The translations under genes were made by a program, and so were the position numbers. A DNA stretch of 64,000 nt from Escherichia coli (GTDB taxonomy: Bacteria > Pseudomonadota > Gammaproteobacteria > Enterobacterales > Enterobacteriaceae), in assembly GCF_016026235.1 (NCBI RefSeq), contig NZ_CP065613.1; one strand, 5' to 3'. The notes beneath the pieces were generated by a model. The model was not told the origin of the DNA and made no database searches. It worked only from the letters and a program-made list of their open reading frames with translations. Positions 12,848 to 62,920 of this stretch are shown here, in pieces; position 1 is the first letter of the stretch, and each line of letters opens with the position of its first letter.

Positions 12848-13335
12848 ACTGCCGTGAAGTGCGGCACCCCGTAGGTTGGATAAAGCGGTCACGCCGCATC
12901 CGACATCTAACGCCCGAGCCGGTTGCCTGATGCGACGCTGACGCGTGTTATCAGGCCTACACCGCTGTGAAGTGCTCCACCCCGTAGGTCGGATAAGGCG
13001 GTTACGCCGCATCCGACATCCAACGTCCGAGCCGGTTGCCTGATGCGACGCTGACGCGTCTTATCAGGCCTACACCGCTGTGAAGTGCTCCACCCCGTAG
13101 GTCGAATAAGTCGGTTACGCCGCATCCGACATCTAACACCCGAGCCGGTTGCCTGATGCGACGCTGACGCGTGTTATCAGGCCTACACCGCTGTGAAGTG
13201 CTCCACCCCGTAGGTCGGATAAGGCGGTTACGCCGCATCCGACATCCAACGTCCGAGCCGGTTGCCTGATGCGACGCTGGCGCGTCTTATCAGCATACGC
13301 CACATCCGGCATACCATGCCGGATGTGGCACATCA
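12848..13335. repeat. Tandem REP/BIME array, four units of about 110 bp plus a terminal 14-bp-stem palindrome at about 13299-13329
   Basis: Repeated gccgcatccgacatc...gcctgatgcgacgctg...cttatcaggcctaca units; ORF track shows the same MRRNRLIRPTGWSTSQRCRPD peptide in several overlapping ORFs. Confidence 0.9.
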
Positions 13336-14994
<1,659 letters not shown>

Positions 14995-48860: not shown

Positions 48861-49041
48861 TATTGAGATGCCGGATGCGGCGTAAACGCCTTATCAGGCC
48901 TACGGCTCGGTTTGTAGGCCTGATTAGACGCGCCAGCGTCGCATCAGGCTCCGGGTGCCGGATGCAGCGTGAACGCCTTATCCGGCCTACGGCTCGGTTT
49001 GTAGGCCTGATTAGACGCGCCAGCGTCGCATCAGGCACAGG
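48861..49041. repeat. Two tandem REP/BIME units between nrdA and nrdB
   Basis: Direct repetition of gccggatgcggcgtaaacgccttatc(a/c)ggcctacggctcggtttgtaggcctgattagacgcgccagcgtcgcatcaggc. Confidence 0.85.
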
Positions 49042-51261: not shown

Positions 51262-52314
51262 TTAATGAATTTCTTTTGCCACTACTAGCGCGACACCGCT
51301 TTTACCCTTCATTTGCAGCGCATAGACTCCACCAGCCACTACCACTAATAGTGCGCCCAGCAGATAAATCATTCGGTAGCCAGTATGTGCAACCATCATC
51401 CCCATCACACAGGCTCCCAGCGCCAGGCCTGCATCCATCGCATTGAAGAAGAGGGAGTTTGCGACACCGATTTTATGCGGTTCCACTGAACTGATAATCT
51501 GCGTCTGAAAAACTGGCGTCACGGAACCATACCCGATACCAATCAACGCGCCAGAAACAACCATCATTATGCTTCCCTGGGTGTAGCCGAGAACCACCAG
51601 TCCTACCGTAAAGAACACAAGGCAAGGGTAAACCACATATTTCGGTCCTTTTTTGTCGCAGACATTGCCGGTAAAGGTACGGCAGATCATCAGGAAGATG
51701 GCGTAGCAAAGCAGGAAATTACTGGCCGCCGACATCAGGTTAAGTTCGCGAGCATAAAGCGCCAGAAAAGCAGAAACCCCGGCATACGAAAAGGTCATAA
51801 AAAAGGTGACCATCGCAAATGGCAACGCCGCGCGATCGAACATGGCGGCAAAGCCCATTTTCGGCGTTGAACCATCAGCATGGCTGATAACCGGCGGCAC
51901 TGTCATAATCAGCGACAGAATAATCCCCACCGCTGCCACGCCGGTGCATAGCCAGAAAGCCAGATTAAAGGCTTCCCAGCGCGCCATATTCAGACCAATC
52001 CACGGCCCGACCACCATTGCCAGCCCCATTGCCAAAGAGAAAAAACTGATGCCCTCCCCACGTCGGGAGGCCGGGATCAGCCGCGCGGAAATCGTTCCTT
52101 TTACCGTAGTGATAACCCCGAAGGTAATACCATGAAGCACCCTAATAAAAAGCAGTGATTCTATTGAGTGGCAAAAAGGATACAGCGCAGAGACCACCAA
52201 AAAGGCCAGAGAAGAGAGCACCAGAATAGTTTTATTCGAATATTTACCCACCCATTGCCCGGCAAAGGGTCGAATAACAATCGCCGCAATTAAAAATAAT
52301 GTCACCAGCAGACC
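51262..52314 (-). pseudogene. MFS transporter gene, C-terminal part (about codons 51-396), interrupted by IS4
   Basis: Multi-TM ORF opening with an ORF-caller GTG inside the target duplication; continues the reading frame of the fragment at 53740-53889 once the IS4 and one duplication copy are removed. Confidence 0.8.
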
Positions 52315-53739
52315 TAATGCCAGTCAGTTAAGCAACTGACTGGCTCTTTTTCGGGGCTGTGGGGTATTTCCAGGGCCTCTCCTTTACCACTCTCGGGAAG
52401 GCCCTTCCCCTTCTCGTCGGTAATTTCACAAGTTGTCCCATACTTGCAAGATCGCGCATCAGCTCCGGTATACGTCCCGGTGAAGCGCCCTGCAATGTCA
52501 TCAGCATTCTCATCACCATTCCGCATGATTCTGAGAAACTCAGTTGATTCGGCCAGTAACCTTTCAGATGTTCCGCCATTTTAATCATCTGATATCTCAC
52601 CAGATTATAAGCCAGTAAGACACCCCACAGCTCTTGCTCCACAAGCTCCGGCTTTTTACTTCTCAGCGTCAGCCTGCTCAGTTGCATCGTCTGTTTTATC
52701 TCCCTGTATCCCAGTTCGATTTCCCAGCGATGACTGTACAGATCCGCCATTTCTCCTCCGGGGAAGCGCATGGCGTCCGTCATCGACGTCAGCAGATGGC
52801 AGACTTTTCCTTTGCGCGTCACGGTCAGCAGGCGGGCTGTCACTTCATTTCCCAGTCCCGGCCACTTTTTTCGTGCCTGCGGGCTGGTTTTCAGCTTCAC
52901 CAGATGATCGCCTTTACCCAGTTTTCTGAGCTCTTCATATTGCGCTCCCTTTCTGAGAGGTATCATCCAGTGGCGGTGTTCTCCCGCCAGGCTCCAGGCA
53001 TTTAACAGTCCCAGTGAGTAATAACCTTTATCCATTAACGTCAGAGTGTTATCGCCGGTTTGTTCTATAAGTTGCTCAGCAAGCTCATTTTCGCTGTTCT
53101 TCATCGTGCCGAAGGCTGCAGCCGTCAGCAGATGGCTGGTCAGTTCCATCTGGCAGACCATTTTGACCTGCGGGTAGAGCGCCGGGTTCCCGGCATGTGT
53201 CTGGCGGGGAAGGCTGCATCGTTCTCTGGTGTATCCGGTGTGCGCCAGAACACACCATCGATGGCCAGCAGGGTCAGGCCGCACCAGTGCGGATGCGGCG
53301 TGGCGTTATGCCAGAGCTGCGCTGTTTTCGTGAACACGCGGCGGACAGCCTCACTTCCCAGGCGCTGGCGGGCCTGAATAACGGCACTGGGGGCAACGAA
53401 GGGGCGATTGCCCGGCAGCATGATGTCCAGGCGATTCACAATCTGGTGAAGAGGTTCTTTACGCTCAAGCGCCATGCCAACAATACACCAGACCATCATT
53501 TCGAGGGGAAGACGGCGCTTGCGTAGCGTTACAGTACCTGATTCGGCAAGGCAACGAGAGATGAGTTCGGGGTCGAGGTAATCCCCCAGAGAAGTCAGTG
53601 GGTTACGCAGAGAATCGTAACGGGATACCAGATCAAGAGCCTGTCCAATGTGCATAAAAAAATCCGGAAACAAGTGAGCGTTTCCGGATTCTTACACAGC
53701 CACTGGATCGGTCAACTGATCCTTAACTGATCGGCATTA
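52315..53739 (-). mobile_element. IS4 (1425 bp) with imperfect terminal inverted repeats taatgccagtcagttaag / cttaactgatcggcatta and 12-bp target duplication caccagcagacc
   Basis: Transposase translation recognisable as IS4 InsG; the duplication sits at 52303-52314 and 53740-53751; ends cross-checked against ORF boundaries. Confidence 0.9.
52328..53673 (-). pseudogene. insG: IS4 transposase split into two overlapping frames (177 aa + 318 aa), apparent frameshift near 53196-53200
   Basis: ORF track shows 53140-53673 and 52328-53284 on the same strand in different frames; together they span a single roughly 442-aa transposase. Confidence 0.7.
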
Positions 53740-53889
53740 CACCAGCAGACCAGCTTTATCAGGGGATGCATGGAGACGATCGGAGATATAAATAGGTAAT
53801 AAGGTCAGCAACACATAAAAGACGAAAAAGATAATAAAGCTAATAATGGTGATTGCCCAAAAATCTTTCGTCCATAATTTTTCTTTCAT
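53740..53889 (-). pseudogene. MFS transporter gene, N-terminal part (about 50 codons), separated from the rest by IS4
   Basis: MKEKLWTKDFWAITIISFIIFFVFYVLLTLLPIYISDRL... first TM helix of an MFS protein; frame terminates at the TAA created by the IS4 end. Confidence 0.75.
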
Positions 53890-54053: not shown

Positions 54054-54932
54054 ATGACACTAACCCAAATCCACACCCTGCTCGCCGTACTGGATTATGG
54101 CGGCTTTACCGAAGCCAGTAAGCGCCTGTTTATGACGCAATCCGCCGTAAGCCAGGCCATTGCCACCCTGGAGCAAGAGCTTGGCGTAGAGATCCTGATC
54201 CGCGAGCGGCGAAAAGCACTGCAGCTGACTGACGCCGGCTCACGCATCGCAAGCCATCTGCGGGCGATTACCCGTGAAGTGAACGCTGTGAAAGAAATTG
54301 CCGAGCAGGAAAAACATAACCCGACCAGAACGCTGCGCATCGGCTGCTTTCCCAGCGCCTGCGCGTGTATTTTACCGGGTATTATTCGCTATTTTGAAAC
54401 TTATCATCCGCAGATAAAAATCATTCCTTACGAAGAGAACAGCAGTGAAATTATTGATTCGGTGCAAAACGAAACTATCGATGCCGGTTTTGTCCATTTT
54501 CCGGTAACCGGAATGTATTCCGTCCCGGTATATCAGGATAAATTTACCGTGGTGCTGCCAGATGCTCATCCCCTGGCAAAAAATAACGCTATATCGGTGG
54601 AAGAACTGGTGGGAGAACCGCTCATTATCAGTAAGGGGCGTTATGAATTAAGCATTATGGCGTTATTTAAGGAAAAGAATATTACGCCGGTCATTAAATA
54701 TGAATTTAACCATCCAGATACGGCAATAAGTTTTATTCGCCAGGGATTAGGAATTGCTCTGTTACCGGAGCTGACGCTGAAAGCCGTCGCCGGTGAGTTA
54801 TGCTCTGTCCCGCTGGAGCCGACGTTTTATCGGCAAATTTCATTGCTGGTCAAAGAGGCGCCGGTAGAAGGCAGCCCATTGTTTTTATTGCAAATGTGTA
54901 TGGAAACCCTGGTGGTCAAAGGCATATTGTGA
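54054..54932 (+). CDS. LysR-family transcriptional regulator (292 aa)
   Basis: N-terminal HTH (LTQIHTLLAVLDYGGFTEASKRLFMTQSAVSQAIATLEQELG) and C-terminal substrate-binding domain; divergent from the MFS gene. Confidence 0.85.
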   Translation: MTLTQIHTLLAVLDYGGFTEASKRLFMTQSAVSQAIATLEQELGVEILIRERRKALQLTDAGSRIASHLRAITREVNAVKEIAEQEKHNPTRTLRIGCFPSACACILPGIIRYFETYHPQIKIIPYEENSSEIIDSVQNETIDAGFVHFPVTGMYSVPVYQDKFTVVLPDAHPLAKNNAISVEELVGEPLIISKGRYELSIMALFKEKNITPVIKYEFNHPDTAISFIRQGLGIALLPELTLKAVAGELCSVPLEPTFYRQISLLVKEAPVEGSPLFLLQMCMETLVVKGIL

Positions 54933-61948: not shown

Positions 61949-62920
61949 ATGACCGAATCAACAACCTCCTCCCCGCATGATGCGGTATTTAAAACCTTTA
62001 TGTTCACACCCGAAACCGCACGGGATTTTCTCGAAATACATTTACCAGAACCACTGCGCAAGCTTTGTAACCTGCAAACCTTACGCCTGGAACCCACCAG
62101 TTTTATTGAAAAAAGTTTACGCGCTTACTACTCGGATGTTTTGTGGTCCGTGGAAACCAGCGACGGTGACGGTTATATCTACTGCGTGATTGAACATCAA
62201 AGCTCTGCAGAAAAGAATATGGCTTTTCGGCTAATGCGCTATGCCACTGCCGCCATGCAGCGTCACCTGGACAAAGGCTATGACAGAGTCCCGCTGGTGG
62301 TGCCGTTGCTGTTTTATCATGGCGAAACCTCGCCTTACCCGTACTCACTCAACTGGCTGGATGAGTTTGACGATCCGCAACTTGCCCGGCAGTTGTACAC
62401 CGAAGCTTTTCCGTTGGTGGATATCACCATCGTACCTGACGATGAGATCATGCAACATCGGCGTATAGCTCTGCTGGAACTGATTCAAAAGCATATTCGC
62501 GACCGCGATTTAATCGGTATGGTCGACAGGATCACCACGCTTTTGGTTAGAGGCTTCACTAATGACAGCCAGCTACAAACACTGTTTAATTATCTGCTGC
62601 AATGCGGCGATACCTCCCGTTTCACCCGTTTTATTCAGGAGATTGCCGAACGTTCACCACTACAAAAGGAGAGATTAATGACTATTGCTGAACGGCTACG
62701 GCAGGAAGGGCATCAAATTGGCTGGCAGGAAGGTAAATTAGAAGGTTTGCAGCAAGGTAAATTGGAGGGTCTGCAGAAAGGTAAATTAGAAGGTTTGCAG
62801 GAAGGCATGCATGAGCAAGCCATTAAAATTGCCTTGCGCATGCTGGAGCAGGGCTTTGAACGTGAGATTGTGCTGGCGGCAACCCAACTCACTGATGCTG
62901 ATATTCCGAACTGTCATTAA
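61949..62920 (+). CDS. yfaD: Rpn-family (YhgA-like) PD-(D/E)XK nuclease, 323 aa, with internal in-frame SD+ATG at 62667-62680
   Basis: N-terminal region with D63...E82-x-Q84 nuclease-like motif ([25 protein letters not shown]); C-terminal GKLEGLQ repeats; K-12 synteny after glpC. Confidence 0.85.

Follow-up and report, generated by a model that had tools for sequence, protein, structure and literature searches.

The window analysed here, a stretch of 64,000 nucleotides of Escherichia coli DNA (contig NZ_CP065613.1), carries a classical IS4 element whose transposase frame is disrupted at a short homopolymer by a single base, an ordinary feature of a kind already known. On balance, we lean towards the missing base being a consensus or base-calling error in the window's assembly. 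A standard IS4 has inserted into an E. coli MFS-transporter gene, and the text of the window lacks one G:C pair of a five-base run (G5 to G4, 53206-53209). A ribosome translating the sequence as written would leave the InsG frame after P150 and stop 21 codons on, whereas the real element would have G5 and an intact 442-aa transposase, as in a sister assembly, G4 being a homopolymer miscall.

The element is located inside the MFS-transporter gene, between inaA and a LysR-family regulator/glpQ, and is complete from end to end, with the following features of the insertion:

51262..52314, minus strand: remainder of the interrupted MFS-transporter gene, a 347-aa ORF with Sugar_tr/MFS_1 domains, collinear with the intact FDAARGOS_943 gene
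52303..52314: copy 1 of the target-site duplication CACCAGCAGACC, a 12-bp direct repeat with 100% identity
52315..53739: complete IS4 with the transposase gene on the minus strand, 1425 bp versus 1426 bp in the reference, aligned over its full length to K-12 IS4
52315..52332: terminal inverted repeat on the stop-codon side of the transposase gene, 18-nt arm, identical to K-12 IS4
53722..53739: terminal inverted repeat on the start-codon side of the transposase gene, 18-nt arm
53740..53751: copy 2 of the target-site duplication CACCAGCAGACC, a 12-bp direct repeat with 100% identity
53740..53889, minus strand: first 50 codons of the interrupted MFS-transporter gene (MKEKLW...AGLLV), which then reads into a TAA formed by the IS4 end

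The two inverted-repeat arms (TAATGCCAGTCAGTTAAG / CTTAACTGATCGGCATTA) are 18 nt long and 89% complementary in a repeat search, and within the window the IS4 end sequence was matched at 52315..53739 only. Members of the IS4 subgroup measure 1400-1650 bp, have ends of the form -AATR--------WTW---- and generate direct repeats of 10-13 bp (PMC2266710, Table 1). The window copy, with its 1425 bp, its TAATGCC... ends and its 12-bp duplication CACCAGCAGACC, falls within these bounds, and 1419 of the 1426 alignment columns are identical to K-12 IS4. The family is also defined partly by a transposase gene without a frameshift (PMC2266710), and on this point the window copy differs, its ORF being split at 53206-53209. 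Apart from the broken frame, the element has every feature by which the IS4 subgroup is recognised. Since the reference, ~99% of copies and the sister assembly all have one ORF, the split is a lesion or an error in one copy rather than a different design, and IS4 membership by descent is not in doubt.

The consequences for the host gene are clear from comparison with an empty site. In FDAARGOS_943, the locus holds an intact 396-aa orthologue (WP_001718552.1) and a single copy of the 12-bp target sequence, the alignment blocks overlapping by 12 bp at 13741-13752 of the FDAARGOS_943 locus. A LysR-family regulator gene (54054-54932), itself intact, is transcribed divergently from the MFS-transporter gene. 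The truncation of the transporter gene is common to only ~18-21 public contigs, all of them labelled E. coli, and matches to the 50-aa N-terminal stub were confined to short contigs that break off there and vary in their neighbours. The same IS4 insertion was found in none of the 5426 complete RefSeq E. coli genomes, among which the best match is FDAARGOS_943, with flanks 100.0% identical (rounded) and the site empty. Thus, by its insertion, IS4 has inactivated the MFS-transporter gene in a small lineage of E. coli, irrespective of whether the transposase is intact.

The window and FDAARGOS_943 are collinear, without gaps and with 34 substitutions over ~62.8 kb, and differ structurally by three IS insertions only. 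An IS1 of 768 bp occupies 45135-45902, flanked by the 9-bp target duplication TAAGACGGC (45126-45134 / 45903-45911), and sits 32 bp upstream of the start codon (at 45102) of yfaL, which encodes an AIDA-type autotransporter; it probably cuts yfaL off from its promoter. This IS1 is present in the NCTC assembly discussed below and absent from LSGL01, NJWF01 and FDAARGOS_943, the last of which has a different IS inside yfaL. The window also contains three repeat arrays: a tandem array with REP-like palindromes in the mqo-eco intergenic region (12854-13293; 3.9 copies of a 113-bp unit with 93% matches), found in FDAARGOS_943 as well; 1.9 copies of an 87-bp REP/BIME-like unit just after nrdA (48869-49036); and 3.4 copies of a 24-bp unit near the window end (62725-62805).

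We aligned the window IS4 with that of K-12 MG1655 (NC_000913.3 4502090-4503515; annotated as 1426 bp, with a 442-aa insG) and with an IS4 copy from an O121 strain. Six mismatches and one gap in 1426 columns separate it from the K-12 element (99.5% nucleotide identity). The sole length difference from the K-12 and O121 copies falls at IS position 892, where both references read G5 and the window reads G4 (GGCGGGGGAAGG in both references versus GGCGGGGAAGG in the window). The comparison is made base for base with a reference of 99.5% identity, and chance is therefore of no concern. The remaining homopolymer runs of the window IS4 are intact, and its ends and 12-bp duplication are perfect. An ORF of 442 aa is recovered if one C is inserted on the coding strand; it differs from K-12 InsG at four residues (I243L, G304A, R326L and E417G). 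The reading frames around the break are arranged as follows:

53140..53673, minus strand: ORF of 177 aa from an upstream TTG, or of 171 aa from the canonical insG ATG at 53655
53140..53655, minus strand: N-terminal transposase fragment of 171 aa, consisting of InsG 1-150 and 21 out-of-frame residues, then a stop
52328..53284, minus strand: ORF of 318 aa, the open frame reaching up to a GTG at 53284
52328..53206, minus strand: C-terminal transposase frame, InsG residues 151-442 and the stop codon
53206..53209: G4 run (C4 on the coding strand), the frameshift site, comprising the last base of codon F149 and codon P150; position of the single alignment gap

The preliminary description had reported two overlapping minus-strand ORFs of 177 aa and 318 aa, together spanning one IS4 transposase of ~442 aa. 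These are present as described, and the frame contexts that it quoted (..PRQTHAGNP.. and others) and its ctggcgggga string, which lies at 53201-53210, are correct. The single gap against the references also bears out the proposed 1-bp change in a short G/C run; however, its placement at 53196-53200 was 6-10 nt off, the run being at 53206-53209. The two-ORF organisation, which had been considered as a possible property of reference IS4, occurs in neither reference, the K-12 and O121 copies both having a single ORF and G5.

The break separates the functional parts of the protein. The Nterm_IS4 domain (Pfam PF13006; residues 18-109, E = 7.6e-34) is wholly contained in the N-terminal fragment, whereas DDE_Tnp_1 (Pfam PF01609), which covers residues 126-352 of the repaired protein (profile positions 3-200, E = 7.7e-32), is recovered in the downstream ORF as written over profile positions 27-200 only. 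The putative first catalytic Asp, D133 (motif LLAID), is upstream of the break, and the putative D209 (motif LMDKGYY) is downstream of it together with E314, in the C-terminal frame; a PDB sequence search with the repaired transposase gave no match at E <= 1, so that D133 and D209 are assigned by motif resemblance only. A DDE transposase with a Y-(2)-R-(3)-E-(6)-K signature in region C1 is a criterion of the IS4 family (De Palmenaer et al. 2008, PMC2266710), and this signature (YREK) is found in the C-terminal frame as Y307-SH-R310-WEI-E314-LGYREI-K321. No single predicted product of the window copy as written would have a complete catalytic triad. With the DNA-binding Nterm_IS4 domain and D133 separated from D209 and E314/YREK, the copy as written is predicted to be unable to make an active DDE transposase.

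The most informative comparison is with another assembly that carries the same insertion. An exact look-up of the 347-aa MFS stub yielded 21 contigs sharing the truncation, including the 4.56-Mb UGFA01000002.1 (NCTC assembly GCA_900449985.1), which has a single 442-aa Nterm_IS4+DDE_Tnp_1 ORF between the LysR gene and the MFS stub. A second look-up, via the exact YfaL protein, gave access to 23,753 bp of this contig, which include IS4, the IS1 preceding yfaL and a further 14 kb. All aligned bases match the window (23,753/23,753, 0 mismatches), and the sole difference is an extra base at 53206 in UGFA01000002.1, whose IS4 has G5 and no indel relative to K-12 IS4. Other members of the lineage differ from the window by 2, 6, 12 or 14 substitutions over 20-24 kb, and some are without IS1 or without both IS. 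With these members at 2-14 SNPs and the NCTC contig at 0, the NCTC assembly and the window represent the same strain or nearly so, the former being at least the closest relative of the latter. It is very unlikely that an erroneous insertion would restore the consensus ORF exactly, and G5 is therefore genuine in the NCTC stock; the G4 of the window is the derived state, either a miscall or a private mutation.

We reject an old inactivated copy fixed in the lineage, given the intact gene of the sister assembly. The earlier idea that inactivation had fixed the insertion in place is accordingly unsupported for the lineage, in which the sister copy of the same insertion is intact. The preliminary description offered an inactivated copy or a homopolymer sequencing error as alternatives, and the alignment and reading-frame analysis supports this framing. 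The extra base that restores a single frame is seen by proxy, in the independent sister assembly otherwise identical over 23.7 kb, which tilts the choice towards an error or a very recent private mutation. In a further relative, GCA_901482675.2, which has the same alleles of YfaL and YfaS and differs by 14 SNPs in 24 kb, at least 5 intact copies of the same IS4 variant (G417) are present, and IS4 thus appears to have expanded in the window's lineage.

Other loci were less useful for tracing the strain. The OmpC allele of the window is too common for this purpose (3096 blocks, the NCTC contig not being among those returned), and a YfaS look-up found other lineage members, with the NCTC contig grouped into similar places. 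The product of yfaA (DUF2138; window ~35300-37000) has 551 aa in the four closest-relative loci, including that of the NCTC assembly, and 562 aa in three slightly more distant ones, including GCA_901482675.2, and one end of the gene may thus have changed specifically in this lineage.

To place the window copy among its relatives, we surveyed IS4 in public genomes. An 81-nt query detected ~4857 IS4 copies in 2521 of the 5426 complete RefSeq E. coli genomes. With a 50-nt query designed so that only seeds of the G4 state match, G4 at IS position 892 was found in 37 of the ~4857 copies (~0.8%), distributed over 18 of the 5426 genomes, with no more than 7 per genome. The same query design applied to two other 5-base G/C runs of IS4 gave exact contracted copies in 6 and 9 records versus 17 at the focal run, which is contracted 2-4 times more often than these two runs. 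Five of the 18 genomes with the focal contraction are also contracted at another tested run (B-2207, SCU-313, 2452, ECO_2_R and 23CRST013); 7 copies of B-2207 show contraction at both sites, and a single IS4 copy of SCU-313 has the two contractions, 380 bp from each other. Such co-occurrence points to an assembly-level cause. Furthermore, in 34 other IS4 copies from public assemblies, all indels relative to K-12 IS4 are 1-bp homopolymer deletions, up to 4 per copy, with 0 insertions, and one-sided homopolymer deletions are the known error direction of long-read consensus. Co-occurrence and one-sidedness together indicate that a good part of the public G4 state is technical. At the same time, the exact 171-aa truncated product is found on 131 contigs from several sources, short contigs included, and the G4 allele is therefore probably real in some genomes. 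Among the GTDB species representatives, neither the exact G4 pattern nor the G4-or-G5 pattern had a match, although the E. coli type strain carries a G5 IS4; the representative genome may differ, or the pattern may be handled differently.

How did the window copy come to lose its base? We find a technical rather than a biological origin of the difference somewhat the better supported, and a technical difference is also likelier a priori because the divergence from the NCTC assembly is so small. The near-identical NCTC assembly reads G5; the contraction recurs at IS position 892 in public assemblies, often with other homopolymer deletions; the difference is in the deletion direction; and the window copy is otherwise pristine, with perfect ends, a perfect 12-bp duplication and its other runs intact. 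However, the window is clean in unique sequence: alignment with FDAARGOS_943 shows 34 SNPs and 0 gaps over ~62.8 kb, alignments with three further assemblies are each free of gaps over 24.4 kb, and the NCTC contig has no second indel relative to the window. This excludes an assembly prone to errors throughout, and any error would have to be confined to the repeated element, which would be plausible if short-read polishing skipped multi-copy IS. The lack of other indels in ~62 kb of flanking sequence against five independent assemblies speaks instead for a real, very recent deletion, in which replication slippage in the sequenced stock after IS4 insertion would have abolished the transposase and left the ends intact, producing a non-autonomous IS4. 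We regard such a deletion as a serious possibility, if a little short of an even chance. Deletions of 1 bp in short G/C runs are the commonest spontaneous frameshift, homopolymer contraction being the expected spontaneous mutation, and an IS transposase gene is not under host selection; related genomes of the lineage have the same IS4 variant in several intact copies, so that the loss of one would cost nothing. The higher frequency of contraction at the focal run than at the two others (17 versus 6 and 9 records, 2-4 times more) and the presence of the truncated 171-aa product on 131 contigs in several data sources can be read in the same way. Yet the G5 sister assembly is identical at all other bases of 23.7 kb, and without a SNP over this distance a real mutation must be extremely recent, not an old feature of the lineage; moreover, in public genomes the contraction is in large part accompanied by further homopolymer deletions within an assembly. 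Were the deletion real, the window copy would depend for its movement on transposase from IS4 copies elsewhere, and transposases of the IS4 family, those of IS10 and IS50 for example, act inefficiently in trans.

Two further readings grant the split frame a function. In a functional two-ORF arrangement, the 171-aa N-terminal protein, which keeps the whole Nterm_IS4 domain, would act as a DNA-binding regulator or inhibitor, and full transposase would arise via -1 slippage of tRNA-Pro on U UCC CCG (C_CCC). Indeed, if the P-site tRNA-Pro slipped by -1 on the C4 run, at UUCCCCGCC, it would re-pair perfectly and yield the wild-type FP-RQ. Against this stand the single uninterrupted ORF of ~99% of IS4 copies (~4820/4857), of the K-12 reference and of the sister copy, and the definition of the IS4 family partly by a frameshift-free transposase gene (PMC2266710). 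The site, which reads UUC CCC GCC, contains no canonical X XXY YYZ slippery heptamer, and the 106 nt examined for a downstream stimulatory RNA structure (53215-53110) fold no better than shuffles (z = -0.14). The two-ORF layout is conserved in elements that use frameshifting of the IS1/IS3 type, whereas G4 is present in only 37 of the ~4857 IS4 copies of complete E. coli genomes, and we consider programmed frameshifting here extremely improbable. It is scarcely less doubtful, though still very unlikely, that the C5 run (InsG codons 149-151) is a slippage hotspot that reversibly switches IS4 copies off (C5 to C4) and on, with low-level -1 slippage giving traces of wild-type transposase; were this so, dead copies such as that of the window would form a reserve, dormant and able to revert, and would be neither fossils nor errors.

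Under the preferred reading of a consensus error, as under that of a recent deletion, the split frame carries little weight for biology, since transposase genes of IS elements commonly show single-base frameshifts, whether from real decay or from assembly artefacts. Annotation of the window IS4 copy as a pseudogene is best regarded as provisional because a near-identical assembly shows the gene intact. At IS4 position 892, homopolymer problems recur in public assemblies, and the site could be used as a quick indicator of quality or a marker of unpolished repeats.

Finally, the window copy can be set against known systems. IS1 (InsA/InsAB') and the IS3 family (OrfA/OrfAB) likewise have two overlapping frames, of which the upstream one encodes the DNA-binding part and the downstream one the catalytic part. 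In these elements, however, the layout is conserved and comes with an A-rich slippery motif and often a downstream structure, whereas the window IS4 is an exception among thousands of single-ORF copies and has neither motif nor structure. Its likeness to K-12 IS4 (insG, b4278) is far closer: the 18-bp inverted ends are the same, the size is equal but for 1 bp, and the window duplication is within the 10-13 bp range; the K-12 element has G5 and a single ORF at another genomic site, whereas the window copy, with G4 and a split ORF, is in the MFS gene between inaA and glpQ. Frameshifted IS4 copies in many public assemblies of E. coli and Shigella (CP026824, CP026845, CP026810, B-2207 and SCU-313 among them) share the contraction at position 892 and the 171-aa product, but many such copies have further homopolymer deletions and occur several to a genome, whereas the window copy has one deletion only. 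The nearest counterpart of all is the IS4 of GCA_900449985.1, which shares with the window the insertion site, the duplication, the IS-internal SNPs and the neighbouring IS1, and which, in contrast to the G4 and split gene of the window, has G5 and an intact 442-aa transposase gene.
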